A DNA stretch of 64,000 bases, taken from contig OY969474.1 of assembly GCA_963700145.1 (NCBI GenBank), positions 4,256,001 through 4,320,000 of the forward strand. The letters are read 5' to 3'. Below, piece after piece: positions 12,271-34,658 of the stretch (its first letter is position 1; every line of letters begins with the position of its first letter). The position numbers and the translations under genes are program-made. The DNA comes from an uncultured Acidobacteriota bacterium (lineage in GTDB: Bacteria > Acidobacteriota > Thermoanaerobaculia > Multivoradales > UBA5704). A model generated the notes under the pieces. The model did no database searches. It saw only the letters and a list, made by a program, of their open reading frames with translations, and had not been told where the DNA came from.

Positions 12271-12276
12271 TCGTGA

Positions 12277-13109: not shown

Positions 13110-13136
13110 GACCTTCAAGATCATACCCCCGACCAC

Positions 13137-14235: not shown

Positions 14236-14276
14236 TTGCAGATGAAACTCTACAGGCAATCTATGCCGGATTGCAA

Positions 14277-14764: not shown

Positions 14765-15008
14765 TCAAGACGTCCTGCCGCAACTCCTCCTCGGTCAGTT
14801 GAAAGGGCGTGACGCCATGTCGCCCGAGAGCCATCAAGAAGGCCACCCGCGGAATGCCTGCGAGTTGGGCCGCTCGGCCCGAGGAAAGCCTGCCCAGCTC
14901 GAATAGCTTCACGGCGGTGAGGAGCCGCATTTCCTCACCAAAAGCCTCAGCGTCGGTCTTCAGACTGACGAGTGTCTCGTCAGGCACGTCGATGCGGACG
15001 GTGCTCAT
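14757..15008 (-). CDS. UPF0175-family antitoxin
   Basis: AVKLFELGRLSSGRAAQLAGIPRVAFL; overlaps the DUF3368 start. Confidence 0.88.
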   Translation of the reverse strand: MSTVRIDVPDETLVSLKTDAEAFGEEMRLLTAVKLFELGRLSSGRAAQLAGIPRVAFLMALGRHGVTPFQLTEEELRQDVLNA

Positions 15009-15078
15009 GCGCCTACCTTATACGCTATAAGCCCGGGGCGCCCCGCGTTTCTGCGGAGCGCCCGGGGCCGGACCTTCC

Positions 15079-15429
15079 TTACTCCTTCTCGTCGATCGCG
15101 TTGGCGAGGTTCAGTTCGGCCATTGTTTGAGGCCGCGGCCGGGGCGGCTGGCGGTGTGGAGCGTGACGCCCCCAGGGCGCAGGTTGCGCAGGTAGGCGCG
15201 CAGCCCGCCTCGTCGGCGGGCCGGCGACGTACTCGACGAACGACGTGATCGAGTTGCGGCCCGGCAGCGCGTAGCGGCGCATGATCGCCGTCCCGCCGAA
15301 GGCCAGCCTCCAGCCGGGCATGTCGTGCAGCAGCTCCTGGATGCGCTCGGCCTTGAGCTGCTCCTTGATGGGGCCCGGCGCCGCCGCCGGCGCCGGGGTC
15401 CTTGCCACGATTGCGGTGGCTCGTTTCAT
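15079..15429 (-). CDS. pterin-4a-carbinolamine dehydratase-like small protein, indels in 3' half
   Basis: LKAERIQELLHDMPGWRL..GTAIMRRYALP...FVEYVA; GGAGG upstream. Confidence 0.55.
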   Translation of the reverse strand: MKRATAIVARTPAPAAAPGPIKEQLKAERIQELLHDMPGWRLAFGGTAIMRRYALPGRNSITSFVEYVAGPPTRRAARLPAQPAPWGRHAPHRQPPRPRPQTMAELNLANAIDEKE

Positions 15430-15535
15430 CGCGTCCTCCTTCCGTTGAGTCAAGCCTCCGCGGCTTGATCGCCGCGGCGGCAGCCAGTGGCTCGTAGAGC
15501 CATAGCTGTCGCCATGCCACCACTGACTTACGCGC

Positions 15536-15558
15536 AAAAGTCAATAGTCTTGACTTTT
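15536..15558. promoter_or_regulatory. inverted repeat made of two back-to-back TTGACT hexamers
   Basis: AAAAGTCAA-TAGTC-TTGACTTTT between divergent genes. Confidence 0.6.
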
Positions 15559-15739
15559 TGGATAACAGGGCCGATACTCCGCTCCGTTTTTCGCCCGCTT
15601 GGGCGGAGGAGGGACCGTGAGAGCAGCGCGGGGCGCCAATGGGGGCGTTCGAGAGACGACGGGAGGGCTCGGGCCGACGATCCGCGGGCTCGATCCGGCG
15701 CTTGGGCCGCCTTTAGCGCGGATGGGCCCCGTTCGCGGC

Positions 15740-15928
15740 CGTACCCGTCCCATTCGCGCGCGGACCTTCCCCAATCGCCGGCGTACCCGTCCCAATCGCG
15801 CGCGTACCTTCCCCATTCGTCGCCGTACCTTCCCCATTTGCGGCTGTACCTTCCCCAATCGCCGGCGTACCTGCTCCATTCGCGCGCGTACCCGTCCCAA
15901 TCGCCGCCGTACCTGTCCCCATCGCGCC
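15740..15928 (+). repeat. tandem array of nine degenerate 21-bp units
   Basis: Consensus about CGTACCYKYCCCAWTCGCSSG, e.g. cgtacccgtcccaatcgcgcg and cgtaccttccccattcgtcgc. Confidence 0.9.
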
Positions 15929-16043
15929 GCGCGCGGCGGTGTCGCGGGCCCCCGGCGCCCATCGCTCGGACAGGTTCGGTTCCGCGGCACGGGGTGTCGC
16001 CGTCCGCGGTTTTCTTCCACCCATTCGTGAAAGGAGGTACCCA

Positions 16044-16418
16044 ATGGCGGCAACGGGAAACAGTTTCGCGGAGCGCTTCGCCCGCTGGCAGGTGATGGCC
16101 GACAACCTGCGGGAGGTCGAGGGGTTCGCTCACATCACGGCCGACCACCAACTGCTCCAGGAGCGGCTCGCCGAGGCGCGCGTGCTCGAGGGGCGGGTCG
16201 AGGACTTGCGCTCGCAGTTCCGGACGGTGACCGCCCGGATGCGCAAGCTCGCCGTGGAGGGCGACACCATCCGCGGGCGCATCACCGCCAACCTGCAGGG
16301 CCGGTACGGCTTCACCGGCGAGACGCTGATCCGCTACGGCGTCACGCCGCGGCGGCCGCCGCGCCGGCGCTCGAAGAGAAGGAGACGCCCGAGGCGCCGA
16401 CGACGAAGGCGGGGGTGA
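16044..16418 (+). CDS. coiled-coil hypothetical protein with basic tail
   Basis: Strong SD AAGGAGG; helical ORF ending LQGRYGFTGETLIRYGVTPRR. Confidence 0.7.
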   Translation: MAATGNSFAERFARWQVMADNLREVEGFAHITADHQLLQERLAEARVLEGRVEDLRSQFRTVTARMRKLAVEGDTIRGRITANLQGRYGFTGETLIRYGVTPRRPPRRRSKRRRRPRRRRRRRG

Positions 16419-16974
16419 CGCAGCTCCCTGCCGCGTAGCCGACGTCCACCCAACCCCGGCGCGGCGGGCGTGTCGCAAGCGCGCCGCCGCGCCGTTTCAT
16501 TCGCCGCGAGGAACCGACGATGCCGGGACAACGGCCTTGAGCCCACCCACACGTTGCGCGAGACCGTCCGCCGCTGGCTGGAGGCCGCGGGGTAGACGCT
16601 CGAGGAGCAGGACCGCGCCCTCGGCGCCGTCCTGGCGGAAAGCGCAGACTACACGCTGGATCGCGAGGGTCACTCGCGAGCCCTTCTTCATGCTCGTAGC
16701 GGAGCCCGTGGCGGCGCCCGAGCGGCTCTTCGTCTGCCGGGCCTTCTCGCTCGAGCTGCCCGAGCGCGATCGGATCGACGCCCTCGACCACGGCACGCGC
16801 ATCCGACTCACCTGGGACCTCCTGAGCAGCTCAATCTCCTCGAGGTCGACTACATGATCGGCACGCCGGTGCCGCACGAGTCCTGCTCTTCGTCTGCGCC
16901 CGCGCGCGGGGGCGCGCGATTTTCTGCTACGGCACCTGCCACGCCTCTCCACCGCTTTCCGCCTGGTTTCTCGC

Positions 16975-18375
16975 CTACGCCAGGCCCTCGGTACGCTCTT
17001 CGGAGCGCCCGAGACGCCGACGGTCCACTGAGCTAGCTCGCAGCTCGAGCACCTGCCCGGTCAGCATCAGGAGCCCGGCCCGGAAGCTCCCGGCCGGCAG
17101 CTCGCGCAGCACCTCGCGCCAGACCTCGGCGACGAGCTGGCGGTCGGTCCTGCCGGCCGCGGCCGCGTCGTACAGGCGGCGCAGCGCCGCGCGCACCCTG
17201 GAGGGCAACGCGCGGGCGCGCACCAGCGGCGCGAGCTTCGGCGCCATCCGCATCAGCTCACGCCGGCGGCCGCGCCAGATCCAGAGGCTTGCCAGGTGAA
17301 CCCCGGCGACCGCCGCCGCCTCGGGTGACCCCGCGCCGAGCGCCTCCGCGAACGCCGCGGTGAGCCGCCGGCTCGGCCTCCTCCGCCCGGCCGGCGAGCG
17401 CCGCCGCCTGCGCGCCGGTCACCCTGAGGACGGCGCGGAGCGCCAGGTGGTCAACGTGCGCCAGGGTCCGCCCGCTCCAGCACCGCCTCGGACTGCTCGG
17501 CGCGGTCGAAGCGGAGGAGGAGCTGCGCGAGGGCCGCCGGCCGCGTCGCCGCCGCCGGGTCGGCCACGCGGCTCGACGGCAAGAACGAGCGCGAGAAGAG
17601 CCCCACGGCGCGCTCCAAGTCCCCGAGGTCGGCGTAGAGCGTGCCCTGCTCTTCGAGCGCCAGGCTCTGTCGCCGCCTCGCCGCACTCCTCGAAGAGCGT
17701 CACCGCGCGCTGGTAGAGCGCCAGCGCTTCGGGCACGCGCTTCCCGGCGCGGCGGAAGCCGGCGAGCCGGCGCGCCAGGACCGCGGCCTCGAAGGAGTCC
17801 TGCTCTTCGAGGAGGTCCGAGGCGGTGCGGAAGGCGAGCTCCGCGCTTGACACCTCGCCGCGACGCTGGAGCGCCTGGCCCACGAGCGTGTAGCCGCTGC
17901 TCTGGAGGTCGCGCGCGGCGGCGCCCGGCGGCAACCGCTGGAGCAGGGTCAGCGCGAGCCGCGCCAACTCCTCGGCGGCGTCGGGCTGCGTCTCGGCGGC
18001 CTGACCGCCGCGCTCGAGGAGCGTCAGGACGACGGCGGCCGTGTGGAACCGCTCCTCGGTGCGGAGGGCGAGCGAGCGCTGCTCCCGCGGCAGCGCCAGG
18101 AGCTCGTCGACGAGCGGCCCGGCCGCCGCCCGCTCCGCCGCGATCGCCGCGGCCTGCGCCTCCCAGCGCCGGGCGAGCCGCGGCCAGACCCGGTCGAGCT
18201 CCGGCGCGCTGGCCGCCGGCGCCACGCCGGCCGCGGTCTGCGCGAGCTGCCCGGCGATCGGCCGCGCGAGCTTGCGGCAGCGCGGGCAGGCGAGGAGGTG
18301 CCCGAGGACGCCCGCCTGGCGCTCGGTCAGCGATGTCACGAACGGCAACAGCTCGCCCTCTCGGAAGTGCTCCAT
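16975..18375 (-). CDS. ZAS/zf-HC2-like finger + TPR protein, frameshifts in 3' half
   Basis: MEH...GHLLACPRC, then helical repeats (AEELARLAL, EALALYQRAVTLFEECGE); the 16975-17253 ORF looks like its C-terminus. Confidence 0.7.
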
Positions 18376-18655
18376 CGGCTCTCCTTCCCGCGTCGGTCCC
18401 GTTGCTGGTGGGGCGCTCTCTGCGCTCCAAAGAGTAACAACTATGGTGTACTGTGCCATAGTGTTGCCTACCAAAGCAAGAAGGTGTGAGTTGGTAGATA
18501 GGCATCTCGACGCCCACGGCCCAGGCAGTGCCTTGGGCGGCGGGGCGGCGCATCGAGTTACGCGGTCGGCACTAACCTCTTGGAAACAGGAGACATCCCG
18601 CGGGCGCCGCGGCCATCCCGGCCGCCCGGCGGTCCCGCCGGGAGAGGAGGTTGCG

Positions 18656-18896
18656 ATGTCGCGTCGAAAGATCGTGGTCAGCGTTGGGGTGCTGGCGGTG
18701 GCGACGTTTCTCGCCGTGTCGGGGCCTGCGCAGGCCCTCGGACCGCGGGCCGGCGGAAGGACGTCACCCGCCTGGTCCAGGGCTTGGCAGGCCGTCTCGA
18801 TGCTCTGGCAGGGGGCGCTCCAGCGCGTCGGGCTGGGGCCGGTAACCGCGCAAGGAGACGAAGGAGGTGGGGTGGACCCGTACCGGCAAGAACTAG
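18656..18896 (+). CDS. small secreted peptide precursor (~79 aa) ending GDEGGGVDP(x)G; one extra base before TAG 18894-18896
   Basis: SD GAGAGGAGG; signal peptide MSRRK-hydrophobic-AQA; Trp-rich spacer AWSRAWQAVSMLW. Confidence 0.7.
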
Positions 18897-18968
18897 CGTC
18901 ACCGAGCATCCGGCTCTGTGGCAGAATACGCGGCGCTAATCTGCTCAAAGCCGGAGACAAACTACCGC

Positions 18969-20414
18969 TTGCGCGAGCACCCGACGCCCCAAACCCTCGA
19001 CCGCTTCTTGCGCGGAGAGCTGCCGGCGACCGAGGGCGTCGGCGTGCTCCAGCACCTCGTCCGCGGCTGCCGCCCTTGCCTGGCGGCCGTCTCGCGGCAT
19101 CTCTATGGGACCGGGCAGCCGAAGGACCTCGACGGCGCCGGGCAGATCTACGACGCCGTTTTCGATCGCGCTTTCGGCATCGACGGCAAGGCCGCCAAAG
19201 ACCGCCGGAAAGAAGCACGCCTCGTCGAGGAGGCGTACACCGCGCTCGTGGCCGAGGGGCCTTCCGGGATCTTCCGTGCTTCCGTCCGCCGCTTCGACAG
19301 CCTGACGTTTTGTCGCGCTTTTCTGCGCCGGAGCTGGGAGCTGCGGCACGAAGACCCTGCCAAGATGCTGCACTTCGCGCGGCTCGCTGTCATGGCCTCA
19401 AGCTTCCTCAAGGTCGAGCGCCTCGGCAAGGCGAAGGTCGCCGACCTCCAGGCCCGCGCTCTCGCGGAGCAGGCGAACGCGCAGCGCATCAACGGCGATC
19501 TGGCGGGCGCGCAGAGGGCCATAGAGCAGGCTCTCGAGCTGCGGCGGGGTGGCACGCAGGATCCCTTCCTCGGAGCTCACCTGCTCACGATTCAGGCCAC
19601 GATCTTCGTCAGCAGGCGCCGCTTCCCGGAGGCGCTGGAGCTCCTGGAGGGAGTCGAGAGGACCTACGCTGCGTTCGGCAAACACCACGAGGCGGGCCAA
19701 GCCGCCGTTCAACGAGGTCTCTACACAGGTTACGGCGGCGATGCCGAGGAGGCGGTGCGCCTCCTGCGCCGCGGGCTAGGCCTCATCGACGAGACGGCGG
19801 ACCCCCAACTCGCATTGGTCGCAGTCCACAACATCGCGTGGTTCCTGATGGAGTCCGGCCGGCACACTGAATCTCGCATTCTGCTCTTCAGGAACAGAGC
19901 GCGCTACAACCAGCACGCCGACCGCATCATCCTCCTGAAGCGCACTTGGCTCGAGGGGCGTATCGCCGCTGGACTAGGGAACTTCGACCGTGCCGCTAAG
20001 CGCTTGGCCGAAGCGATGCAAGGCTTCGAAGAAGCCGAGCTCGGCTACCAGGCCGCCCTCGCCGCCCTCGACCTGGCCGCTGTCTGGCTTGAGCAAAACC
20101 ACTCGCCGATGGCCGCCACCCTCGTCGAGCAAGCCGCCGAGACCTTCACCGCGATCGGCGTCAACCGCGAAGCCATCGGCGCCCTCATCCTCCTCCAGAA
20201 AGCCTGCGAAAAAGGCCTAGCCACCGCCGCCTGGGTCCACCGCCTAACCACCCACCTCCGCCCCCTGGAGTACGATTCCTACGACCCGTTTCAATCAAGA
20301 GTAGGTACGGAGAGCCACCGAGCGAGGGCTCAATGCCCTAGCCCCTCGCCTGCTGACAAGTCAGCGTCAGTGCCCAAGGAGCCTGGCGAGTCGGCGACGC
20401 GGAGCCGGTGCTGA
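18969..20414 (+). CDS. ZAS/zf-HC2-like finger + TPR protein
   Basis: EHPTPQTLDRFLRGEL...QHLVRGCRPC; TPR-like helices (EALELLEGVERTY, AVHNIAWFL, WLEGRIAAGLG, ALAALDLAAVW). Confidence 0.8.
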   Translation: MREHPTPQTLDRFLRGELPATEGVGVLQHLVRGCRPCLAAVSRHLYGTGQPKDLDGAGQIYDAVFDRAFGIDGKAAKDRRKEARLVEEAYTALVAEGPSGIFRASVRRFDSLTFCRAFLRRSWELRHEDPAKMLHFARLAVMASSFLKVERLGKAKVADLQARALAEQANAQRINGDLAGAQRAIEQALELRRGGTQDPFLGAHLLTIQATIFVSRRRFPEALELLEGVERTYAAFGKHHEAGQAAVQRGLYTGYGGDAEEAVRLLRRGLGLIDETADPQLALVAVHNIAWFLMESGRHTESRILLFRNRARYNQHADRIILLKRTWLEGRIAAGLGNFDRAAKRLAEAMQGFEEAELGYQAALAALDLAAVWLEQNHSPMAATLVEQAAETFTAIGVNREAIGALILLQKACEKGLATAAWVHRLTTHLRPLEYDSYDPFQSRVGTESHRARAQCPSPSPADKSASVPKEPGESATRSRC

Positions 20415-20612
20415 GAACCGTTGCCGTTCGAGCGGCCTGGTGAAGTCCAGTGGCGCGGGAAGACCCCATAGGGCCGCCTGCTTGACCAAGGCACTTTTCT
20501 CAGCTACTGTAAAGTCCTCGACTGCGGCCTTTGACTGACACGCCCGGCGAGCGATATCTAGCTCGCGCGCACGCCACATTACTAGAGCAACAAACCCAGG
20601 ACACCAGCGCTC

Positions 20613-22720
20613 GTGGCGAACACAACTATAGTTTCTGAATACGATTGGGAGTACGACGTCTTCGTCAGCTATACAAGGTTCGACGAAACGCTGACCGGCC
20701 TCGTGCAACACATGACCGAGGCCTTGAGGACTCACTATAAAAGGCTAACCGGCCGCCCATTGCGAATATTCCAGGACACGGAGGCCTTACCCACCGCAGC
20801 GCTTTGGCAGGATCGGATCCTAAGCGCACTCCGCGGCAGCGCTACGTTACTGGCGATCTATACACCATCGTATTTTCAATCGGAATGGTGCGCCCGAGAA
20901 TGGGATTTCTTTCTGGCAATGGAACCAGAACGACGGCAGAAGTTCCACCTGGGCGACTTCGACTCATTAGTATTTCCTATCATAGCTGCAGAGGGCATCA
21001 CTTTTCCCGACGCCTCATCTATCCAGCATACCCGGCAGAGCGAGTTGCAAGCACGACAGGCTCTTCGCTTTGTCGACCTCGATCCTACTAGCTTATCCTA
21101 TGCAAAACATATCGCGACACTCGCCAGGCATCTCGCGCGAATCCTCGCGTTAGTGGCCCAAGTACCTATTTCTGATACCCCTGATGGCGGCTACAAGCCA
21201 CAACTAAACATTCCGCTAGTAACGACCTCCGGACGATCTGACGTTCATAGGCTAACAACCCTTCTAGCAGATGCCGAGTCAGCCATCATTATTGGCGTGA
21301 CAAACGACGAGCTTAGCGTCATTCTTGAACCCTCCCTAAAAGCCAAGCGCCTCAAAGCACGCGATGAAGGTGCCTTTTGGGATAGCTTGCGCATTGTCTT
21401 TCTCGCAGAGGACCTCCTCGCCTTTGTGGAGGATCACTTCACCACCGAAATCTCTAATCCGCGAGAGGCGCATCACCGCCGAGCGCGGCACGCCGGGCAG
21501 ATACAGCGACAGATCATGTCGCTCCTGATACGCCAGGGTGCACCTGGGCATTGGCGTCTCTACGCCTACCCGTACGCCCTTCCCTTCGCAGGCTACCTCT
21601 TTACGATGCCAGATGGCCGACGTATTGTTCAGCTAGAGATTGCCCGGGCCTCGCGAATGCCTGGCGACAATGTCTATATTCAGTTTGTCGATCGTGTGGA
21701 TACTCAGCTTGATGAGGCGTTTAGAGAAGTGGTGTCCTCAAGTCAGGAACAGCACGAGATTGTCCTCATTGGCACACCTGGCGTCGAGCCAGGCAGCTTC
21801 GCGTGTAGAGGTGCTCGTTTCCGTCGCAGCGTGCTTCTAGGAGGGCACAACACAGCCGACTTTCTGCCCTGCATCGTGGCCATCACCTGGCGAGCGTCGT
21901 TACGAGGTGTCGAACCGCTTCTTCAGCTGAACACCCCATCCAACTCTACGCGGGAAATGGGGAAGGCATCCCACGTAAGTGGCTATATCAACGAGCGGGA
22001 CTACTGGGCGGCCCTCCCGACCCAAGCCGACCGGTCCTCGGGTGAGGAGATGTGGCTCACACCTTCGGTCGCGGTCGCTGCATTGCACCGAGAGCTACAA
22101 AGCGACTTCGGCATCGAGGACAGCAGGGGTGCCGTGAATCTAGTTGCCACGGTGCCCTTCTACTACGCTGATAAGGAGAACCTTTTCTTTTTTGTTCTCG
22201 AGCGGGAAATACCAGCGGCGCATTTGTTTAGTGCTAACTCGCGGATGTTCGGTTGGTCTATTGATGAGTTACTCGCTGCTCGCTTTCGTCAAGTACTCCA
22301 AAATGCTATAGCTGCTTTACAGCACCCTCTCACTGCCCGCCAACGGGAGCGAGCCCTGAAGATGCTAACTCTTAATCTTCATGCGCACGGCCAACACGAC
22401 CTGGCTGATATGCTTCATCGACTAGGTGAGAGCCTCGGCAACGACCAAGCGGCGATACTGGCCTTGCACCACGCCGCCGCCAAATGACAGGTCTTCAAAT
22501 TCTCGACGGTGACGAGTTTGAGGTTAACGGTTTGGCGGGCCTGCAATACCGCATCTTTTTCTCACACCTACTTCCACTGTACGCAAAGCTCGGAGTCATT
22601 GGAGCCAGTGCTGAGCTGATGGCTCTAAACACTGATAAGCGGCGAATCCAAGCGGCTGAGTCACTAAGTGAGCTGTACGCTACGGAGGCATATATGCTAT
22701 CGTTACCAATCGAGGTGTAA
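20613..22720 (+). CDS. TIR-domain fusion protein (TIR - alpha/beta middle domain - degenerate Nudix-like C-terminus), frameshift near 22480
   Basis: YDVFVSYTR, IFQD, TPSYFQSEWCAREW (catalytic-type Glu); C-terminal SHVSGYINERD...AALHRELQSDFGI; ORF 22484-22720 is the likely tail. Confidence 0.8.
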
Positions 22721-22723
22721 GAA

Positions 22724-23386
22724 ATGAACGAGATCGGGGCTTTTTTCGACAGAGTCTACGCGAACACCGAACGATATTGGTGGCGCGTACCGCATGCGCA
22801 TTCGACTGTCCCTGAAGACCATGCCGACTCGCTCATCACACAGCAGGTCCTTCGCTTTGCGCGAATGCGAGGAAGTGGGAGAGCGCTCGACCTGGGAGCA
22901 GGTGAAGGGCACGACGCCGTCCGGCTTGCGCTGCTAGGATGGAAGGTCGAAGCAGTCGAGATGAGTCAAAGCGGGGCCAAGAAGACCCAACGTCTCGCAG
23001 AGAGCCTTGGCACAGAGGTCACTGTACACTGTGCTAATGCGGAAACTTTTGAGCCAACCGAAGCTTTTGATTTGATCGTATGTAACGGCCTCCTTCACTA
23101 TGTTACCGATAAGCGAAGGCTCTGCCAGCGCATGCAAGAGTGGACTGTTATAGGCGGACTTAACGCGATTGCGCTTTGGAGCGATTTCACGCCGGTTCCT
23201 GAGTGTCACCGTATCGTCCCAACTTTTCCGGATCGGGAGCGAGGAGAAGTTGTAGCCGCATACAGCCATTGGCAAATCGAGCTGCTATACCTTGAACGGA
23301 ACCGTGTTGACTTGGCACATGCTGATATGCCGAGTCACGTTCACAGCTACATCAAGTTAATCGCGGTAAGGCCGAGTGTCTGCTGA
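22724..23386 (+). CDS. class I SAM-dependent methyltransferase (TehB-like)
   Basis: ALDLGAGEGHDA, VEAVEMS, FDLIVCNGLLHY. Confidence 0.9.
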   Translation: MNEIGAFFDRVYANTERYWWRVPHAHSTVPEDHADSLITQQVLRFARMRGSGRALDLGAGEGHDAVRLALLGWKVEAVEMSQSGAKKTQRLAESLGTEVTVHCANAETFEPTEAFDLIVCNGLLHYVTDKRRLCQRMQEWTVIGGLNAIALWSDFTPVPECHRIVPTFPDRERGEVVAAYSHWQIELLYLERNRVDLAHADMPSHVHSYIKLIAVRPSVC

Positions 23387-23476
23387 GGACAAGCCGTGTT
23401 AGATTGGACCGGCAGGTTCGGGCCCTCGGCCCACGCCCGAGAATTTGGTTCTTAGGAAAGCGAGGAGTACCCAGCG

Positions 23477-23978
23477 ATGGCGACAACCTGGAGAGATGTA
23501 GTTGACGAGAACGATTTTGTTATCGGGCGTGCCCCGAAGGAACATTTCGACGGAGTGACGCTAATCTGCCGGGTCGCCTTCATTATGCTAGCGAACAGTA
23601 AGGGTGAGTTGCTGCTTCACCAACGCTCGTCCAACAAACGGTTCTATCCGTTGCACTGGTCAGGGACTGCTGGCAGGACACCTTCATAGCGGAGAGAGCT
23701 ATGAAGAGGCCGCGCATAGAGAACTTCGAGAGGAGCTTGGAGCCTTCGCCGACCTCGAATTCGTCGGCAAGTTCTACTCGCCCGAGGACCATGAGATGGT
23801 GGGAGTTTTCCTTGGACGCTACGATGGTGAACTGAGGGTCGAGCCTCACGAGGTGGTACAGGTTCGCTACTTCAGCCCAGAAACTCTAGAGCGTGAGCTG
23901 CCTACCATGTTAGTTACTAGCTTTCTGGAGCGCGCACTTCCGTTGATCCTACCTCGGCTGTCGCAACACGCCGAGTGA
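23477..23978 (+). CDS. Nudix hydrolase (IDI/YfcD-like), frameshift near 23675
   Basis: DVVDENDFVIG, LLLHQRSSNKRFYP, Nudix box GHLHSGESYEEAAHRELREELG. Confidence 0.88.
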
Positions 23979-24278
23979 AGCAGACGCTGTCTGGCGATGT
24001 CACGGCGTCTTCAGAGGGAATAGTCAAGAGACTAACACGATGGGACCTCAGTTCGCGTTGTGCCGAGCCTTCAGGGCCGGCAAAATTCGAAGCATGCTTC
24101 GCTGTCACGACGCCGATTTCAGTCAGCACTGCGGCTTCCTGCATGGCGCCTCGATCAGGCCTGCCATTGACTGGGATGCGCTTCCCAGGTAGATTCAGAC
24201 AAGGTCAGAAGATCGGGCATACGGAACACCTCGCCGCCTTTAGCGCAGAATGCACTCACCAGGGAAAGCGGGATACCA

Positions 24279-24789
24279 ATGATTGAGCGGACGCTTATTG
24301 TCATTAAACCCGATGGCTTGGCACGCGGACTCTCGATGGCAATCCTTGCGAGATTCGACATGGTGGGCCTGAAGCTAGAGGCTATCAAGATGATACGGCC
24401 GACTGCGGAGCAGGCAAAACATCACTATCTATATGAGGACATTGCTTCTCGCCATTCCGAAACCGTCTGGATACAACTTATAGAGTACCTTACCGAGGCG
24501 CCGGTGATTGTCGCTGTGTTCTCGGGTGTTTCTGCAATTGAAGTGGCCAGAAAGCTTGTCGGATCGACCGAACCGAGGAATTCACCTCCTGGAACAATTC
24601 GAGGCGATTACTGTCACCAATCCTATGCTGTTTGTGATCGGGCTGGCAAGGCTCGTCCGCAATCTTATACATGCCTCTGCCAACGCAACGGATGCAGAAC
24701 GGGAGATTGCTGTTTGGTTTGCACGAGATGAAATCTTCGCCTATCGAAGGGTTGACGATTTCGAACATTACCTCGGAACGGCAGAATGA
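24279..24789 (+). CDS. ndk: nucleoside diphosphate kinase, frameshift near 24655
   Basis: ERTLIVIKPDG, PGTIRGDY, RNLIHAS (catalytic His), AEREIAVWF. Confidence 0.9.
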
Positions 24790-24793
24790 CATA

Positions 24794-25438
24794 GTGGGCG
24801 ACTTTCTTTCAGAGATTCTTCGCCTCTCCGAGACCCCAACGTGTCGGCTGTCGGTGGAAGCTGCACTAAAGAAACTCGGCGTCCTCAATCCAGATGAGCA
24901 GTTGATATTTCATCGAGACTTGGCTGCTTGGCATCGGAGCGGTGCTGAGACCTACAGCTGCTCCGCCGAGCTGACCATTGCCGGCGCGAGCGGAGCGACG
25001 CTATGCCGCACCCTCATATGTAAGGCTGTCTTCACTTTCGGTCCATTGTCCGATCAGAGCCTTTCGAGATGGTTAGAGCGGTACGCCCTTTTGGCCGAAA
25101 ATGGAGTGCAGGTACCTCATGTATATTTTGCCGATCGCGGGGTAATTGTTCAAGACTATATAGAGCACTCTCTTCCTGACTTTCTAGCAGGCTGCTCGGC
25201 GGAGACTGCGGTCGCGGTCGCAACACAGATCCATCGGCTCGCACAAGTTCTCGACAAGCTCGGGTTCCTACCCGTCATGTTCATTCCCGACTTGCGTATC
25301 GCCTCCGACAGTACATGCTTCGTTGTGGATGTCGGCGAGGATCTTGGCCCTCCCGGCCGTGCACCGAAGGGTGCGCGGAATTCCACACGTCAAGCTGAAG
25401 AATTTTTCGCCAAGCTCGGTGGAGCCACTGCTTGGTAA
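24794..25438 (+). CDS. kinase-like fold protein with degenerate catalytic loop
   Basis: LICKA, GVQVPHVY, GVIVQDYIE, FVVDVGED; no canonical HxD. Confidence 0.5.
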   Translation: MGDFLSEILRLSETPTCRLSVEAALKKLGVLNPDEQLIFHRDLAAWHRSGAETYSCSAELTIAGASGATLCRTLICKAVFTFGPLSDQSLSRWLERYALLAENGVQVPHVYFADRGVIVQDYIEHSLPDFLAGCSAETAVAVATQIHRLAQVLDKLGFLPVMFIPDLRIASDSTCFVVDVGEDLGPPGRAPKGARNSTRQAEEFFAKLGGATAW

Positions 25439-25863
25439 GCGCATGGCAGGCCGGCCTAGCTCCTGAAAAGACCTAGCGCTGCGAAAAAGGCAGCCAGAGT
25501 GCCCATTAATGGATCAAGACCAAAGAATTTCGGAGTGTCCACTTGCCGCCGACTTGTCTCGTAGAGCTAGGCGGGGTTAGCTAGTCCTAAGCGCTACCGA
25601 GCCAACTCGACAGATCAGGTGCTCGGCCTTCGCAGCATCACAGCCCTAGGACGAGGTTCGGCATGATCGATGAGAAACTGCACTAACCGTTCGTCGATCG
25701 GGCGTGAACTATCATGGCGAAAGACGGGTCGTACCCACGGAAAACGCGCAAAGGTGCGCGAATAGGCCATAGATCTCATGCTGGCCGTCAAGGATCGGCT
25801 GTCGGCACATGTTCGGAAGAAGTTGAGCAGACGGTGCGCGCCGGTGATCGGCGCAAGGCGGTC

Positions 25864-26298
25864 TCAGCGCCGCCGCGACTTGACCGGCTCTGACGGGGCG
25901 CTGCGGGTGGGGGCTTGGTGGGCTAGAAGGTCCCGGATCTCGCCGAGGAATCGCTGCAGCTCCTGCGACATCGCGGCTGGCCCCTCCGGCGGCAGGGCGT
26001 GGGCCTTCGGGTTGAAGACCTGGAGCTTGCGGCCGGTTGGGCTCGGGGCGGCGGACTCCGGGGGGTAGGCGAGGTTGAAGAACTCGGCGGGGCGCAGCTC
26101 GACGGCTTGCAGGATCTCGAGGACGCGCCGCAGCTTGAGCTCGAAGGAGCCGGAGAGGAGCCGCCAGATGTAGCCGGGGCTCTGGCCGATGCGGCGCTCG
26201 ATCTCGGCGGTCGGGACCTCCGACATCTTGATGACCGCCTTGAGCAGCTCGGAGAGGCGAGCGATCTCGGCGGAATGGTCGTCGGGCTTGGCGGGCAC
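25864..26298 (-). CDS. Xre-like HTH transcriptional regulator
   Basis: AEIERRIGQSPGYIWRLLSGSFELKLRRVLEILQAVELRPAEFF. Confidence 0.8.
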   Translation of the reverse strand: MPAKPDDHSAEIARLSELLKAVIKMSEVPTAEIERRIGQSPGYIWRLLSGSFELKLRRVLEILQAVELRPAEFFNLAYPPESAAPSPTGRKLQVFNPKAHALPPEGPAAMSQELQRFLGEIRDLLAHQAPTRSAPSEPVKSRRR

Positions 26299-26340
26299 GG
26301 CAGTTTCGAGACTACAGGATTCTGGCGTCAGGCGCGAGAG

Positions 26341-27402
26341 TTATGGCCCCCGGCGCAGGTCGGCGCCCACCGCTTCGCCGACGCTCGCGAGCCCGTCCCG
26401 CTCCAGCAGCTCCAGCAACTCCTCGTTGATCCGCCGCACGACGCCGGGGCCGCGGTAGACGAGGGCGGTGTAGAGCTGGACCAAGGAGGCGCCGGCGCGG
26501 AGGCGGCGGTAGGCCTCGGCGCCGGAGTCGATGCCGCCGACGGAGATCAGGACCGCGCGGCCGGCGAGGCTTGGCGCCAGCGCCCGCAGCATCCGGTAGC
26601 TCTTCTCGCGCAGCACCTGGCCGGAGAGGCCGCCGCCTTCCTGCGCTCCGGCGAGGAGCGCGTACTCGGTCGTGGTGTTGGTGGCGACGATGCCGGCGGC
26701 GCCGGCGGCGACGGCGGCCTCGGCCAGGGCCACCGCCGTCTCCTCCTGAAGGTCGGGGGAGAGCTTGACCAGGACGGGCTTCTCGGTCACCTCCGCCGCG
26801 GCGGCCAGGACCTCGCCGACGAAGGCCTCGTTCTGGAGGTCGCGCAGGCCGGGCGTGTTGGGGGAGGAGAGGTTGACGACCAGGTAGTCGGCGAGCGGCG
26901 CCAGGCCGCGCAGGAGCTTGCGGTAGTCGGCGAGGGCGTCGCGCGGCGGTGTCGTGCGCCCCTTGCCGACGTTGATGCCGACGGGCAGCGGGTACGGGCG
27001 CTGGGCCGCGAGGCGCGCGGCGAGCGCGGCCATCCCGGCGTTGTTGAAGCCGAGCGCGTTCTGCAGGCTCTCGGCCTCGGGGTGGCGGAAGAGGCGCGGG
27101 CGCGGGTTGCCGGCCTGGGGGTGCGGCGTCACGGTCCCGACCTCGACGAAGCCGAAGCCGAGAGCGGGCATGGCGCCGACGGCGCGGCCGTCCTTGTCGA
27201 AGCCGGCGGCGAGCCCGACCGGGTTGGCGAAGCGCCGCCCGAAGAGCTGCTGCACGAGGCGCGGATCGTCCACCAGGTGTCGCGCCGCCAGCCGCTCGCC
27301 GAGCGACGGCAGCGCCGCCACGGCCCGCAGCCCACGCAGCGCCAGCTCGTGGCCGGCCTCCGGGTCGAGCCGGAAGAGCAGCCCCCTGAGCGGGTAGCTC
27401 AT
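26341..27402 (-). CDS. pyrD: dihydroorotate dehydrogenase (quinone, class 2)
   Basis: NPVGLAAGFDKDG, GTVTPHPQAGNPRPRLFR, VNLSSPNTPGLRDLQ, GGLSG. Confidence 0.96.
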   Translation of the reverse strand: MSYPLRGLLFRLDPEAGHELALRGLRAVAALPSLGERLAARHLVDDPRLVQQLFGRRFANPVGLAAGFDKDGRAVGAMPALGFGFVEVGTVTPHPQAGNPRPRLFRHPEAESLQNALGFNNAGMAALAARLAAQRPYPLPVGINVGKGRTTPPRDALADYRKLLRGLAPLADYLVVNLSSPNTPGLRDLQNEAFVGEVLAAAAEVTEKPVLVKLSPDLQEETAVALAEAAVAAGAAGIVATNTTTEYALLAGAQEGGGLSGQVLREKSYRMLRALAPSLAGRAVLISVGGIDSGAEAYRRLRAGASLVQLYTALVYRGPGVVRRINEELLELLERDGLASVGEAVGADLRRGP

Positions 27403-27469
27403 CGTGGTATCATGTGCCAAGTCTCTGCCCTACAGTCACTTGGTGCGGAGACGGGGTACCGACTCGGAC

Positions 27470-27793
27470 GTGAGCACAGAGACTCCCACCACCATGGCGG
27501 TCGAGATCTTTGGCGCCACGTATCACGTGCGGGGCGGCGACGACAGCGGCGACCTCCAGGAGCTGGCCCGGGTCGTGGACGGCAGGATGCGCGAGCTCGC
27601 CTCGCACGCCTCCACCAGCGATCCGGCGCGGCTGGCCATTCTCGTGGCGCTCAACCTGGCCGACGAGCTGTCGCGCGCCCGCAAACAGCAGGAAGGGGAA
27701 CGGGTCGAGATCAGGGAGAAGATGGCGGAGCTGGCCAGGGGGCTGGAAGCGGCCCTCGAGCGTGAAGGCCGCGGCGCCGCCGACTTGGGATAA
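27470..27793 (+). CDS. zapA: cell division protein ZapA
   Basis: VEIFGATYHV, LARVVDGRM, LAILVALNLADEL; precedes 6S RNA and rny. Confidence 0.9.
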   Translation: MSTETPTTMAVEIFGATYHVRGGDDSGDLQELARVVDGRMRELASHASTSDPARLAILVALNLADELSRARKQQEGERVEIREKMAELARGLEAALEREGRGAADLG

Positions 27794-27806
27794 CATGAGC
27801 GAGTTT

Positions 27807-27989
27807 GCATCCCCTGTGTGGTTTGTGACGGGTTCAACGGTTTTAGAACCAACACGAATCACAAGGGAGTCTTTATCTACGGGACTGTGCCTGCCTCGCA
27901 CCGACGAGGACGCTAATGGCTCGTAGAGCGGACACCCACCTGACGCGCAGGTTCTAACGCGCCAGCCCCCACGGCTGCGCGGGGGATGC
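27807..27989 (+). ncRNA. ssrS: 6S RNA
   Basis: ~183 nt between zapA and rny (known synteny); ends pair (GCATCCCCTGTGTG / TGCGCGGGGGATGC); CCCACCTG motif; TAACAT -10 upstream. Confidence 0.85.
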
Positions 27990-28068
27990 CTTAACTCTCC
28001 TCTTCCGGGGATCTCCCGATCCCGGCCGGGCCCCTCCTGTTCGTCGAATCGAACAGGGGGATGATCCG

Positions 28069-29634
28069 GTGGAAACCGAACTGATCCTGGCCGCGGCGCT
28101 GGTCTTCGCCGGCGTCGTCGTGCCGTTGGTCTGGTGGCTGCTGATGCGGCGGGCGGGCAAGCGGGTGCTCGCCGAGGCCAAGCGCCAGGCCGCCAAGGCC
28201 CTCGAGGAGGCCGAGCGCGACCGCGAGGCGCACCTCCGCGAGGCCGAGCTCGCCGCCAAGGAGAAGCTCCTCCAGGCGCGCAGCGAGTTCGAGAGCGCGT
28301 CGCGCAAGCGGCGCAGCGAGCTCGAGCAGCTCGAGCGGCGGCTGACCCAGAAGGAAGACAACCTCGACAAGCGGACGGGGGAGCTCGCGGGGCGCGAGAA
28401 GGAGCTCAACCAGCAGGAGCGCTCGCAGGTGACGCGCGAGAAGGAGATCGTGCGCCTGGAAGGCGAGCTGACGGCGGCGGTGGCCGAGCAGCGCGGGCGC
28501 CTGGAGCAGATCGCCGGCCTGACCGCCCAGCAGGCGCGCGACGAGCTGATCAAGGGGCTCGAGGACGAGGCGCGGGTCGAGGCGGCGCACATCGTCAAGC
28601 GCCTGGAGGACGAGGCGCGCGAGAGCGCCCACAAGCAGGCGCAGAGGATCATCGGCATGGCGGTGCAGCGCGCCGCCTCCGACTACGTCGCGGAGACCAC
28701 GGTCTCGGTCGTCATGCTCCCCTCCGACGAGATGAAGGGGCGGATCATCGGCCGCGAGGGGCGGAACATCCGCACCCTGGAGGCGGCGACGGGGGTGGAC
28801 CTGATCGTCGACGACACCCCCGAGGCGGTCATCCTCTCGGGCTTCGACCCCTACCGCCGGGAGGTGGCGCGGGTCTCCCTCGAGCGCCTGATCGCCGACG
28901 GCCGCATCCACCCGGCGCGCATCGAGGAGGTCGTCGAGAAGGTCAAGGCGGAGTGCGAGCAGCAGATCCAGGCGGAGGGGGAGGCGGCGCTTTTGGAGCT
29001 GGCGATCGCCGGCATGCACCCGGAGCTGGTCAAGCTCCTCGGGCGCCTGCGCTTCCGCACCTCCTACGGCCAGAACGTCCTCCAGCACAGCAAGGAGGTC
29101 GCGTTTTTGGCCGGCACCATGGCGGCCGAGCTCAAGGCCAACGTCCAGGTGGCGCGCCGCGGCGGCATCCTGCACGACATCGGCAAGGCGATCGACCGCG
29201 AGATGGACGGCACGCACCTGCAGATCGGCATGGACCTGATGCGCAAGTACGGCGAGAGCGAGGATGTGGTCCACGCCATGGCCTGCCACCACGGCGACTA
29301 CGACCCGCAGACCGTGGAGGCCGTCCTGGTGACGGCGGCCGACGCCCTCTCGGCGGCGCGGCCGGGGGCGCGGCGCGAGATCCTCGAGACCTACGTCAAG
29401 CGGCTGGAGAAGCTCGAGGAGATCGCCGGCGGCTTCAAGGGCGTGCAGAAGACCTACGCCATCCAGGCCGGGCGGGAGATCCGCATCATCGTCGACAGCG
29501 GCAAGATCGGCGACGAGCAGGCGCTCTGGCTGTCGAAGGACATCGCGCGGCGGATCGAGGCCGAGCTGACCTATCCGGGCCAGATCAAGGTGACGGTCAT
29601 CCGGGAGACGCGCTCGGTCGAGTACGCTCGGTGA
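28069..29634 (+). CDS. rny: ribonuclease Y
   Basis: N-terminal TM, coiled coil, KH domain ([14 protein letters not shown]), HD domain (LHDIGKA), SAARPGAR. Confidence 0.97.
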
Positions 29635-29674
29635 GGCGCGAAGGCTTTCGCGCCGGGCTCCGATCGAGGCGCGC

Positions 29675-30466
29675 GTGAAGCTCCTCTTCGTCGGCGACGT
29701 CGTCGGCCGGCCCGGCCGGCGGGCGGTCGCCGAGATCCTGCCGCGCCTGGTGGACCGCCACCGCGCCGACTACGTGGTCGTCAACGTCGAGAACTCGGCC
29801 GGCGGCTTCGGGGTGACGCCCGAGGTGCTGGCGGAGCTCGACGAGGTGCTGCCGATCGACTGCTTCACCTCCGGCAACCACGTCTGGGACAAGAAGGAGG
29901 GGGTGGAGCTCCTCGCCCGCGAGCCACGGCTGCTGCGGCCGGCCAACTACCCCGACGGCAACCCGGGCAGCGGGCTCCACGTCGGCGAGACCGCGGCGGG
30001 GATCCCGGTGGCGACGATCAACCTCGAGGGCCGGGTCTTCATGACCGCCCTGGAGTCGCCCTTCGTCGTGGCCGATCGCCTCCTCGCCAAGCTCGACGGC
30101 CGCGTCAAGGTGGTGATGATCGACTTCCACGCCGAGGCCACGAGCGAAAAGCAGGCCCTGGCCTTCTACCTCGACGGCCGGGTGAGCGCGGTGTTGGGGA
30201 CGCACACTCACGTCCCCACCGCCGACGAGCGCGTATTGCCAGGCGGCACGGCGCTGATCACCGACGTCGGCATGACCGGCCCCTACGAGTCGATCATCGG
30301 CGTCCGCGTGGACAAGGTGCTGAAGCGGTTCCTCTTGCAGACGCCGTCGTCCTTCGAGGTAGCGAAGCGGGACGTGCGGCTGGCCGCCGTCGTCGTCGAC
30401 ATCGACGAGGAGACCGGCAAGGCGCGCGGAGTCGAGCGGCTGCTGATTCCCTTTACGGGCGAGTAG
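29675..30466 (+). CDS. ymdB: YmdB-like metallophosphoesterase (TIGR00282 type)
   Basis: GDVVGRPGR, NVENSAGG, TSGNH, DFHAEATSEK, GTHTHV. Confidence 0.93.
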   Translation: MKLLFVGDVVGRPGRRAVAEILPRLVDRHRADYVVVNVENSAGGFGVTPEVLAELDEVLPIDCFTSGNHVWDKKEGVELLAREPRLLRPANYPDGNPGSGLHVGETAAGIPVATINLEGRVFMTALESPFVVADRLLAKLDGRVKVVMIDFHAEATSEKQALAFYLDGRVSAVLGTHTHVPTADERVLPGGTALITDVGMTGPYESIIGVRVDKVLKRFLLQTPSSFEVAKRDVRLAAVVVDIDEETGKARGVERLLIPFTGE

Positions 30467-30471
30467 CTGCC

Positions 30472-31245
30472 CTACACCGGCGCCGCGGCCCGCCGGGCCT
30501 CGCGCCAGAAGGCGACGAGGGTGGCTAGGGCGGCGAGGGTGAGGAGGACGCTGACGGCGACCGCTGCGGCGCCCAGGGCCGGGGAGGCGACGTAGAGGAG
30601 GTTGACGTCGGACCGCTCGGCCCAGGTGCGGAACTGTTCGGCCGGAGTCTCCAGGAAGACGTGGGCGAGGGTGGGGACGAGGAAGAGGACGGCGGCGAGG
30701 GCGACGCGCAGGCGCGGGTGGCGGCGGAGGGTGAGGAGCAGGGCGATCAGCGGGTAGACGAGGAGGCTCCAGGTGAAGGGCGTCACCTCGGGCCTGAAGG
30801 GCCAGCCGCTGTGGTCGAAGCGCAGGACGTGGTCGGCGTGGTGGAGGAGCCCGAGCCCGGCGGTCGCGAGGGCCAGCTTCTCGGCGCCGGAGAGCCCGGT
30901 GCGCCTCGCCGGCGCGGCGCGCGCGGCGTCCTCCCGCCGCCAGACGGGGAAGGAGGCGTCCTCCGCGCTCCCCATCGCCTTGATGAACGCCTCGTTGTCG
31001 AAGCCGGGGAGCGCCTGCAGGCGCTCGAGGAGCGCCGGCTCGCCGCTCGCGCCGAGCGGCACGACGCACTTGGCGCCGCCGCCTTCCAGCACCCAGAAGA
31101 CATCCGGCGCGAAGGGGCCGGCGCCGGTCGTCACCACCCGCACCGACTCCAGCGCGGCCCACGAGACGGCGTTGCGCCGGCCGCCCGGATCGACGCAGCC
31201 GGCGTCCTCTTCCGACAGCTCGACGCGGTAGTCGGCTTCGTTCAT
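30472..31245 (-). CDS. two-domain hypothetical membrane protein
   Basis: Soluble N-domain (GPFAPDVFW, LQALPGFDNEA) plus TM region (HHADHVLR..HSGWPF). Confidence 0.6.
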   Translation of the reverse strand: MNEADYRVELSEEDAGCVDPGGRRNAVSWAALESVRVVTTGAGPFAPDVFWVLEGGGAKCVVPLGASGEPALLERLQALPGFDNEAFIKAMGSAEDASFPVWRREDAARAAPARRTGLSGAEKLALATAGLGLLHHADHVLRFDHSGWPFRPEVTPFTWSLLVYPLIALLLTLRRHPRLRVALAAVLFLVPTLAHVFLETPAEQFRTWAERSDVNLLYVASPALGAAAVAVSVLLTLAALATLVAFWREARRAAAPV

Positions 31246-31278
31246 CGCTCCATCCTACCCGGCGCTCGGAAGCGCCGC

Positions 31279-33985: not shown

Positions 33986-34080
33986 GCGCGCCGGTATCTT
34001 ACGCCGCCCCGTCGGCCCGCCTGTGCGACAATCCAAGGGGCGCGGGCCCGCGTAGGAAAACCCGCGGAGGGAATGCCGTG

Positions 34081-34611: not shown

Positions 34612-34658
34612 GGCTCGGCCGCTTCGTGCTATCGTCCTGAGTCCGAAGGGGAAACGCG

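Follow-up and report, generated by a model that had tools for sequence, protein, structure and literature searches.

The stretch of DNA analysed here, called the window throughout, comprises 64,000 nucleotides (nt) of contig OY969474.1 (positions 4,256,001 to 4,320,000) from the genome of an uncultured Acidobacteriota bacterium. Between positions 20613 and 25438 it carries a cassette of five genes, all on the plus strand, encoding a TIR fusion protein, a methyltransferase dependent on S-adenosylmethionine (SAM), a Nudix hydrolase, a nucleoside diphosphate kinase (NDK) and a small protein of kinase fold (Table 1). An earlier reading of the letters alone (the sequence-only reading) had singled out this block for its low G+C content (GC) and its five co-oriented genes, and both traits hold: GC is 0.547 in the cassette, against 0.699 to the left (14000-20400) and 0.735 to the right (26000-40000), and lies at 0.53-0.57 in all 500-nt bins of positions 20500-25499, against 0.66-0.78 in the flanks. 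The block is made of two separately conserved modules, which we call A (the TIR fusion, or core, gene with the methyltransferase and the Nudix) and B (NDK with the mini-kinase). The five genes are therefore not one conserved operon, as the modules are joined in few places only. We give a probability of about one half to the core protein being a ligand-gated TIR effector that acts in conflict or defence. The first description of the genes also required amendment: the tail of the TIR protein lies in another frame, the Nudix and NDK genes are each split, and the remnant of a further Nudix gene on the minus strand adds a sixth piece.

Table 1. Features of the cassette and its right border (positions in the window).
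Feature	Position	Strand	Remarks
Sensor-effector (core) gene	20613-22720	+	3' end broken; 624 codons to premature TGA; last 78 codons in another frame
TIR domain	20646-21152	+	residues ~12-180; Glu within WCAREW motif
PLD-like fold domain	21204-21761	+	residues ~198-383; HKD histidine absent
IDI/YfcD-type Nudix-fold domain and helical tail	21762-22720	+	tail cut by stop and frameshift
Class I SAM-dependent methyltransferase, TehB-like small-molecule type	22724-23386	+	220 aa, intact
YfcD/IDI-like Nudix hydrolase gene	23477-23978	+	one extra base; pieces 23477-23689 and 23604-23978
Spacer between the two modules	23979-24278		300 nt; one promoter-like site at 24167-24195
Long-type nucleoside diphosphate kinase gene	24279-24789	+	one extra base near 24654; NLIHAS out of frame
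Minimal RIO/Bud32-like protein-kinase-like protein	24794-25438	+	214 aa from GTG, intact; 4 nt past NDK stop
Remnant of second YfcD-like Nudix gene	25394-25636	-	degraded, stops in frame

The core protein has 702 amino acids (aa) in its intact form. In the window, open reading frame (ORF) 20613-22487 matches Pfam TIR_2 (PF13676) over residues 16-110 (E 2.4e-10; 41.4 bits against a cut-off of 28). Fold work was carried out on an intact homologue, P0002, using an AlphaFold model built from 25 family sequences (mean pLDDT 85.4) whose domains were separated by a wide VIA fold search. Residues 9-180 of P0002 match the TIR domain of RPP1 (5teb) with a Z of 14.9, and about 30 of the 50 VIA matches listed are TIR or TIR-related chains. 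The WCAREW motif pointed out by the sequence-only reading contains a Glu that is kept in 17 of 17 TIR-bearing rows of family alignment A1 and that aligns, in a profile search of the PDB, with the Glu of WCLDEL in the plant TIR 3jrn. A conserved Glu is catalytic in the enzymatic plant, SARM1 and bacterial TIRs; by alignment, the window domain possesses the conserved Glu of NADase-type TIRs.

What had been described from sequence as a middle alpha/beta domain corresponds to a PLD-superfamily fold in the model. P0002 residues ~200-385 match such folds at Z 10.4-12.3, including TrmBL2 (5bpd, 12.3), SauUSI (7clg, 11.8), NgoAVII (4rct, 11.5), NucT (6ehi, 11.5), Nuc (1bys, 11.4), FAM83B (11.1) and the sugar-binding domain of TrmB (2f5t, 10.8). 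When the whole P0002 model was compared to the PDB with Foldseek, TIR matches filled the list and only TrmBL2 and NgoAVII pointed to the middle domain. Neither alignment A1 nor A2 has an invariant or near-invariant His in residues ~198-383, and the HxK(x)4D motif is missing, so this part is not an HKD enzyme. Non-enzymatic PLD-like relatives lacking the HKD histidine exist in the ligand-binding domain of TrmB/TrmBL2 and in DUF1669 of FAM83. The modelled domain is nearest to the ligand-binding members of the fold and is probably itself ligand-binding instead of catalytic; a sequence relationship to TrmB/TrmBL2 or FAM83-type domains is undetectable by Pfam or by PDB profile search.

The C-terminus, rightly seen from sequence as a degenerate Nudix-like part, takes an IDI/YfcD-type fold in the model: P0002 residues ~384-690 match human IDI (2dho, Z 14.7), E. 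coli IDI (1hx3, 13.3) and YfcD (2fkb, 13.2), with NrtR (3gz5, 10.2) also among the Nudix-fold matches. Its Nudix box has diverged to RELQSDFGI, interrupted or preceded by an insertion, and retains part of the acidic motif. The window protein has no Pfam NUDIX match at E≤0.1; weak ones occur in the C-terminal domain of 5 of 56 family members, and some relatives are nearer to the canonical box. Both folds that make up the modelled body of the protein bind small ligands, be they phosphorylated compounds or sugars. An ESM Atlas search with residues 196-702 of P0038, the intact sister copy described below, returned a best score of 0.80, the level reached by shuffled proteins.

Pfam bears out the methyltransferase, Nudix and NDK assignments made from sequence. 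The methyltransferase, which starts 4 nt past the end of the intact frame of the core gene, matches Methyltransf_25 (2.8e-13) and TehB (9.5e-11; 41.9 bits against a cut-off of 20.4). Its scores with the NCBIfam TehB equivalog models (49.5, 41.6 and 37.3 bits) stay below the cut-offs (303, 219.5 and 218), and we hence call it TehB-like and not an equivalog of the TehB tellurite methyltransferase. The 3' piece of the free Nudix gene matches NUDIX (PF00293; 8.9e-16, 58.6 bits against 21.1) and carries the Nudix box GX5EX7REUXEEXGU (GHLHSGESYEEAAHRELREELG). Homologues of 158-191 aa are intact and in a single frame in loci L010, L011, L015, L020 and L024, and that of L010 scores 82 bits with the YfcD and 67.5 bits with the IDI model of NCBIfam, both below cut-off. 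The free Nudix gene of the window is a pseudogene of a genuine member of the Nudix family. The minus-strand remnant at the right border was found by tblastn with the Nudix proteins of L020, L010 and L024 (33-36% identity, E 4.5e-5 to 1e-3), and its translation shows HLICRV... with stops. Its orientation is that of the convergent Nudix genes in loci L014, L016 and L017.

In module B, the ORF bearing NDK (24279-24731) matches the Pfam family (PF00334) at 2.8e-28. The 5' piece of the gene covers profile positions 1-107 with 98.9 bits against a cut-off of 27, the 3' piece covers positions 109-135 with 22.5 bits, and the best NCBIfam model, PRK14543, gives 136 bits against a cut-off of 287. The window NDK lacks an in-frame catalytic His (NxxH), since NLIHAS lies behind the one-base insertion. 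The last gene, which most likely starts at GTG 24794 inside ORF 24671-25438, has no match in Pfam, NCBIfam or PADLOC, and its kinase-like nature, proposed from sequence, was recovered from structure prediction. Its AlphaFold model (pLDDT 89.6) matches Rio1 (1zp9) at Z 12.4, RIOK3 at 12.2 and Bud32 at 11.8, and the 50 VIA matches listed all share this fold, being protein kinases, pseudokinases or phosphotransferases for small molecules. Residues K77, D166 and D179, invariant across 8 sequences, are the expected ATP-binding Lys, catalytic-loop Asp and metal-binding Asp. On the model, the protein belongs to the protein-kinase-like superfamily, with no assignment to a named kinase family.

Four lesions break the cassette. 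The core gene is interrupted by an in-frame TGA at 22485-22487 and loses one base around 22500-22515, its last 78 codons forming ORF 22484-22720. With P0002 as query, tblastn follows a single frame through the TGA to 22520 and then a different frame from 22514, and translation in three frames puts the family motif QVFKF past the stop, with GLAGLQYRIFF, likewise conserved, read in the other frame; the gene thus has both a nonsense codon and a one-base deletion. Homologues of ~700 aa are single ORFs whose last ~80 residues match the 78-codon ORF of the window, and this tail lies within one open frame in 22 of 25 related loci (L024, which is in pieces, was left aside). In the free Nudix gene, the first 66 residues and the half with the box are in different frames, with an extra base near 23669-23671, a break placed with the help of in-frame homologues (…YPLYWSGAAAGHL…). 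NDK switches frame between GTIRGDY… and NLIHAS, giving pieces 24279 to ~24650 and ~24655 to 24789; homologues of 168-171 aa read AGKAVRN[VL]IHAS over the break, placing an extra base near 24654.

A near-identical sister cassette is present in the protein collection, on a contig of 48,009 bp. The TIR protein encoded there, P0038, is intact (702 aa), has Arg at the position of the TGA, and shows two differences from the window, E9G and R260H, within the first 624 residues. Its Nudix stub, P0042, consists of the same 70 aa with one substitution (H23Q), so that the frameshift is common to both contigs. The kinase-like ORF of the sister contig (P0031) is extended, which implies one base fewer at ~24654 and thus an NDK that would be in frame there; no NDK protein of that contig is on record. 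As for reads, one DNA run (X1) contained 7% of the sampled words and gave three exact-match contigs of 151 nt, all of them outside the four lesion sites; no RNA run was listed as containing the sequence.

The substitutions between the two copies, together with unbroken long core genes, lead us to consider the lesions as very probably real decay. Elsewhere in the genome, five aminoacyl-tRNA synthetase frames of 672-1185 aa are unbroken, and the matches of pyrD, rny and ymdB are full-length. An alternative that blames the breaks on faulty assembly, leaving the living organism with an intact, working cassette, could appeal to the intact TIR protein and the implied in-frame NDK of the sister contig, to three of the four lesions being single-base insertions or deletions, and to the genome being a single contig of 5.46 Mb with an estimated completeness of 95.4%. 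We regard it as improbable: E9G, R260H and H23Q show the contigs to be distinct sequences instead of one sequence read twice, a base substitution that creates the TGA accounts for one lesion, both contigs share the Nudix frameshift, no insertion or deletion falls inside a run of more than three identical bases, and the long core genes are unbroken. With the TIR gene truncated and frameshifted before its conserved tail, and with Nudix and NDK frameshifted, the system is most likely dead in the source genome.

The cassette is a foreign block acquired horizontally, as attested by its GC relative to the flanks, by the lack of a full-length relative of the TIR fusion protein in 40 related genomes, and by GC drops at homologous loci, with transposases at one of them. 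In 8 of the 40 genomes there are matches, confined to the first 263 residues of the query, i.e. the TIR domain and what follows it. Of 15 loci measured, 13 have a homologous cassette with a GC below that of its flanks; L020 shows the widest difference (0.529 vs 0.702), and there the cassette sits between DDE_5 and rve transposase genes. In the window, the cassette occupies the right edge of a larger variable region, with the core genes pyrD, zapA, rny and ymdB immediately to its right. We found no tRNA genes in the 64 kb and no direct or inverted repeats flanking the ends of the island, where only short chance-level pairs were seen. Scans for promoters and terminators returned no more sites than shuffled sequence. 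Genes are separated by 4 nt between core and methyltransferase and by 4 nt between NDK and the kinase-like gene, against 300 nt between the modules, a spacing that mirrors the two-module make-up. A 103-codon ORF in this gap (23975-24286) was considered as a gene and rejected for lack of support (best Pfam E 0.028, no PADLOC match, nothing by tblastn).

The left edge of the variable region carries an IS1595-family transposase gene (6500-7447, plus strand; DDE_Tnp_IS1595 6.3e-45 and a zinc ribbon). A pair formed by a RES toxin and an Xre-MbcA-ParS antitoxin lies at 12958-14008 on the minus strand, and its RES domain extends over two overlapping ORFs, with profile positions 4-91 in 13121-14008 and 94-153 in 12958-13503; it is perhaps another frameshifted gene of the region. 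Two further islands of low GC (0.52-0.62) are found in the window, at 7000-13000, which includes a 449-aa ORF (11043-12392, minus strand), and at 55000-61000. ORFs of both islands gave no PADLOC match at E≤1e-5, and those of the first island, the one scanned with Pfam, gave no match at E≤0.001.

We then looked at the distribution of module A. A scan of representative genomes with a single protein gave nothing; with alignment A1 as query it gave 26 loci, almost all of them in Actinomycetota, plus one in an alphaproteobacterial metagenome-assembled genome (L024). According to tblastn, the core gene is adjoined by the methyltransferase in 22 of the 26 loci (one of the remaining four ends 233 nt past the core gene) and by a YfcD-like Nudix in 10, and has a TIR N-terminus in 8, one of them partial. 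Clustering of the ORFs gave a similar picture, with the core in 26 loci, the methyltransferase in 20, the Nudix in 10 and a GT2 glycosyltransferase in 7, other neighbours being variable. The kinase-like gene and NDK are found only at L024, with NDK 5 kb away. The conservation of the neighbourhood expected from the sequence-only reading thus stands for core, methyltransferase and Nudix, which co-occur elsewhere, and fails for NDK and the kinase-like gene. The core family is not rare: a search with its profile at E≤1e-3 retrieves 558 cluster representatives, of which 345 pass at E≤1e-10 and 121 at E≤1e-30, with many fragments among them, and intact versions exist in cultured strains of Plantactinospora, Streptomyces, Actinoallomurus and Pedococcus. 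Among the viral contigs of IMG/VR, neither the core protein (alignment A2) nor the kinase-like protein (alignment A3) had a relative, and tblastn with P0038 gave nothing in phage records and, in plasmids, only a TIR-domain match in one Sinorhizobium plasmid.

Some members of the family show unusual arrangements. P0008, from Actinoplanes tereljensis (821 aa), has the core fused to the methyltransferase; at the junction, the last part of the core tail and the N-terminal SAM motif of the methyltransferase are gone, and we suspect a deletion joining two neighbours. In L022 (7719-11697) and L029 (378-4392), two diverged TIR-less copies of the core gene stand tail to tail and are followed by the methyltransferase and GT2.

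The N-terminus of the core protein is exchangeable. Among 56 long members we counted 23 with TIR, one with SIR2_2, one with CHAT and one with HTH_31, the others having a shared helical domain; this conserved N-domain of ~130 residues is common to 17 TIR-less members, and a PDB profile search with it gave nothing meaningful. Most matches to the helical N-domain alone look like fragments of the core family. The same domain also precedes Pua-like and calcineurin-like phosphoesterase domains outside the family (P0161 and P0178). TIR, SIR2 and CHAT are typical cell-killing effectors, and their interchange on a conserved body of ~500 residues points, by analogy with modular defence proteins, to the body being a sensor and the N-terminus a killing domain. 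The window TIR, sitting where SIR2 or CHAT sit in relatives, is probably the effector.

The exchange of N-termini also bears on a different role for the TIR domain, that of a signal maker in the manner of ThsB. In such a scheme the PLD- and Nudix-like domains would detect the phage, an unlinked effector would read a signal of cyclic ADP-ribose type, and the methyltransferase, kinases and Nudix would modify or clear that signal. In PADLOC and NCBIfam, the TIR domain is indeed matched best by ThsB and ThcB4 of Thoeris and by FxsC, with scores that fall far short of the cut-offs, and Nudix and kinase enzymes could act on ADP-ribose derivatives. With no ThsA-like or other receptor gene in the cassette or among the conserved neighbours, and with TIR replaced by SIR2 or a CHAT protease, which fits interchangeable killing domains and not signal synthases, we find this scheme very improbable.

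Another proposal that can be confronted with these data is an addiction cassette, in which a constitutive TIR NADase toxin would be neutralised by its neighbours, the Nudix hydrolysing products of ADP-ribose type and the methyltransferase modifying them, and which would stabilise a mobile island without any phage sensing. The mobile, low-GC character of the cassette and the RES/Xre pair in the same variable region would suit it, as would the known cleavage of NAD+ and ADP-ribose derivatives by Nudix enzymes (PMC9503650); the loss of the TIR tail and the Nudix frameshift would then represent decay of both partners. It is nonetheless a poor candidate. The ~500 conserved sensor-like residues fused to the TIR would be superfluous for a simple toxin, the Nudix partner is found in only 10 of the 26 loci, and the sister contig combines an intact TIR with a Nudix that has already lost its frame, a state that an essential antidote would forbid.

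Module B has a distribution of its own. The kinase-like protein is rare in a word-indexed protein search (8 proteins), and a metagenome scan yielded 26 loci, a set distinct from the core loci. An NDK or NDK-like gene adjoins the kinase-like gene in 22 of them. Four of these partners are short NDKs (tblastn), at most 72% identical to that of the window, and the other 18 belong to a family of ~340 aa, of which 13 match a local NDK hidden Markov model at E≤1e-3; one passes the Pfam NDK cut-off, weakly, and no other Pfam family was found in them. In this longer family, present among others in L041, L042, L046, L048-L051, L053 and L054, the diverged NDK-like part is the C-terminal half.

Modules A and B occur together only in the window, in the sister contig and in L024, which has in addition an adenylate-kinase-like P-loop gene and a Ham1 gene. 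Two independent metagenome loci have comparable sets beside other TIR or SIR2 proteins. L039 (7484-11202) encodes, in one direction, a Nudix, the kinase-like protein, NDK, a different SAM methyltransferase and a TIR protein of CAP12/Pycsar type (438 aa; TIR match 8.6e-26; PADLOC PDC-S35) for which we found no profile relationship with the window family (hhalign probability 1.2%). L056 (6185-8654) has in a row a SIR2_2 protein (ThsA-like SIR2, 3.2e-23), an NDK-like protein of 340 aa and the kinase-like protein. A radical SAM gene on the opposite strand and a transposase-like gene upstream were also seen at L056.

A precedent for a nucleotide-gated NADase is found in Kongming, which consists of an adenosine deaminase (KomA), a HAM1-like dead NTP pyrophosphatase (KomB) as well as a SIR2 NADase (KomC) (bioRxiv 10.1101/2024.12.20.629578; PMC13454610). 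As outlined there, the deaminase, a dNMP kinase and NDK make dITP, the dead HAM1 protein senses it and SIR2 depletes NAD+, and variants of KomBC are linked to SAM methyltransferases (bioRxiv 10.1101/2024.12.20.629578). On the strength of this precedent we favour a modified-nucleotide-gated NADase, an analogy that lends a known counterpart to one idea of the sequence-only reading, namely that a dead or diverged pyrophosphatase fold reads a modified-nucleotide signal. In the intact form, the methyltransferase and the two kinases would turn a nucleotide precursor into a modified nucleoside polyphosphate or an NDP-X compound, which the free Nudix would keep low in uninfected cells. Once accumulated, the compound would bind the non-canonical Nudix/PLD-like module of the fusion protein, and this would release or assemble the TIR domain, so that NAD+ is destroyed and the infected cell stops. 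In this scheme we infer the defence role, the ligand and the direction of signalling.

That the pathway is specifically one of methyl-nucleotides is doubtful. In that form, the TehB-like methyltransferase, the RIO-like mini-kinase and then NDK would make an alarm molecule, a methyl-NTP or a related NDP-X, the YfcD-like Nudix would erase it, and a receptor of PLD and IDI-Nudix folds would switch TIR, SIR2 or CHAT; as part of the same proposal, and sharing its low odds, the pair of NDK and mini-kinase would be a portable module charging signals for several effector families. If true, this alarm would follow the dITP of Kongming as the second chemical class of messenger nucleotide with a modified base. 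Should the intact form work as proposed, immune signalling by nucleotides, so far through cyclic nucleotides, isomers of ADP-ribose and dITP, would come to include a methylated one. That would also bring a new type of receptor, formed by a PLD-like domain and an IDI-type Nudix fold, and explain the widespread and unannotated pairing of NDK-like and minimal RIO-like kinase genes.

Several points weigh against a defensive, ligand-gated effector encoded by this cassette. The favoured function relies, for every member of the family, on sequence, models and analogy. Of the 26 core loci, 25 have neither NDK nor the kinase-like gene and, conversely, tblastn finds no core protein, window-type methyltransferase or YfcD-like Nudix in the 26 kinase-like loci; with the modules mutually missing from nearly all loci, the five-gene pathway rests on very few co-occurrences. 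Since part of its acidic motif is kept, the C-terminal Nudix-like domain could be an enzyme instead of a receptor. At two of the lesions the sister contig departs from the window, so a sequencing error in one assembly is possible. The association with defence islands is a weak argument, being a raw count with no background rate: strong PADLOC matches lie near the core gene (within ~5-7 kb) in 3 of the 26 loci (DruD in L015, DpdE in L019 and DrmB in L031), in a scan of neighbour proteins of at least 200 aa (at least 130 aa in one list), and WYL regulators are near it in two further loci. Finally, the commonest TIR-less form is found in a syntenic chromosomal locus of Streptosporangiaceae, and GT2 accompanies the core in 7 of 26 loci, a setting more suggestive of metabolism or regulation than of immunity on mobile DNA, which argues against the family being solely an island-borne defence gene.

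In Pedococcus bigeumensis (L015, 10955-17170) the cassette adjoins a Druantia DruD gene (1.5e-126) that itself stands between two large genes of no assigned family, and a Ser/Thr-kinase gene with PD-T4-6 and mad6 matches lies upstream.

The GT2-linked loci are the starting point for the view that the family serves ordinary metabolism or envelope biology instead of immunity, as a module that senses or processes small molecules. An isoprenoid diphosphate or an NDP-sugar would be what the PLD-like and IDI-like Nudix domains bind or convert, the methyltransferase and either GT2 or the Nudix would act on this metabolite too, and the N-terminus would be a regulatory output, of which the TIR versions are an offshoot. 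This agrees with the seven loci that have core, methyltransferase and GT2, with the P450, dienelactone hydrolase and PNPOx genes of the syntenic Streptosporangiaceae loci, with the HTH_31 N-terminus of one member, with the ligand-binding domains of TrmB and TrmBL2 and IDI being among the fold matches, and with the small number of known defence genes nearby. It has more difficulty with N-termini that are typical cell-killing effectors (TIR in 23 of 56, SIR2, CHAT), with TIR-type cassettes that are low in GC, patchy and, in L020, flanked by transposases, and with the analogous sets of NDK and kinase-like genes beside other TIR and SIR2 proteins in L039 and L056. On balance we consider a metabolic or envelope role conceivable, yet unlikely. 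In the annotation of the source genome, the block, a decaying foreign island, should be recorded as pseudogenes plus two intact genes.

The sequence-only reading had recognised no known system in this gene combination, and our searches agree: no system in PADLOC matches the cassette and none of its models covers the core protein, and we found no description of the gene set in the literature, where supplements of defence-discovery studies may list it as an unnamed candidate. Comparisons with known systems are thus those of parts. The arrangement of a nucleotide-binding sensor over a TIR NADase in a single protein would be analogous to the TIR effectors of Pycsar and CBASS (CAP12/Pycsar TIR, TIR-SAVED), but neither the cassette nor 90 neighbour proteins of 12 related loci include a CD-NTase or a pyrimidine cyclase. 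With Thoeris it shares a bacterial TIR with a conserved Glu (ThsB, 22.2 bits in PADLOC; type III ThcB4, 30.3 bits against 220 in NCBIfam); these scores are far below cut-off and, unlike Thoeris, the cassette has no ThsA-type partner (SIR2 or Macro/SLOG). The core protein resembles NrtR in joining a diverged, predicted Nudix fold, which would bind a nucleotide-derived ligand, to an output domain. Here, however, the best folds are IDI and YfcD, the output is TIR, SIR2, CHAT or helical and not a winged helix, and there is an extra PLD-like domain. That domain has the same predicted fold as TrmB/TrmBL2 and DUF1669 of FAM83, and like them has no catalytic HKD histidine.

The closest comparison is with Kongming, whose logic matches that proposed for the cassette: a base-modifying enzyme, nucleotide kinases including NDK that bring the modified nucleotide to the triphosphate, a receptor whose fold comes from NTP pyrophosphatases and an effector that destroys NAD+. 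The two are not the same system, as PF00962, PF01725 and PF13289 are absent from nine cassette ORFs searched with Pfam, and Ham1 was seen only near L024. In the window, the putative receptor is made of Nudix and PLD-like domains and shares one chain with the effector, which is a TIR, the modifying enzyme is a methyltransferase, and a free Nudix is present. The cassette also encodes its kinases, while Kongming borrows them from the phage. Compared to known nucleotide-sensing NADase conflict systems, what is new at this locus is the architecture of the putative receptor and the accessory module, present here in a copy that is most likely no longer functional.

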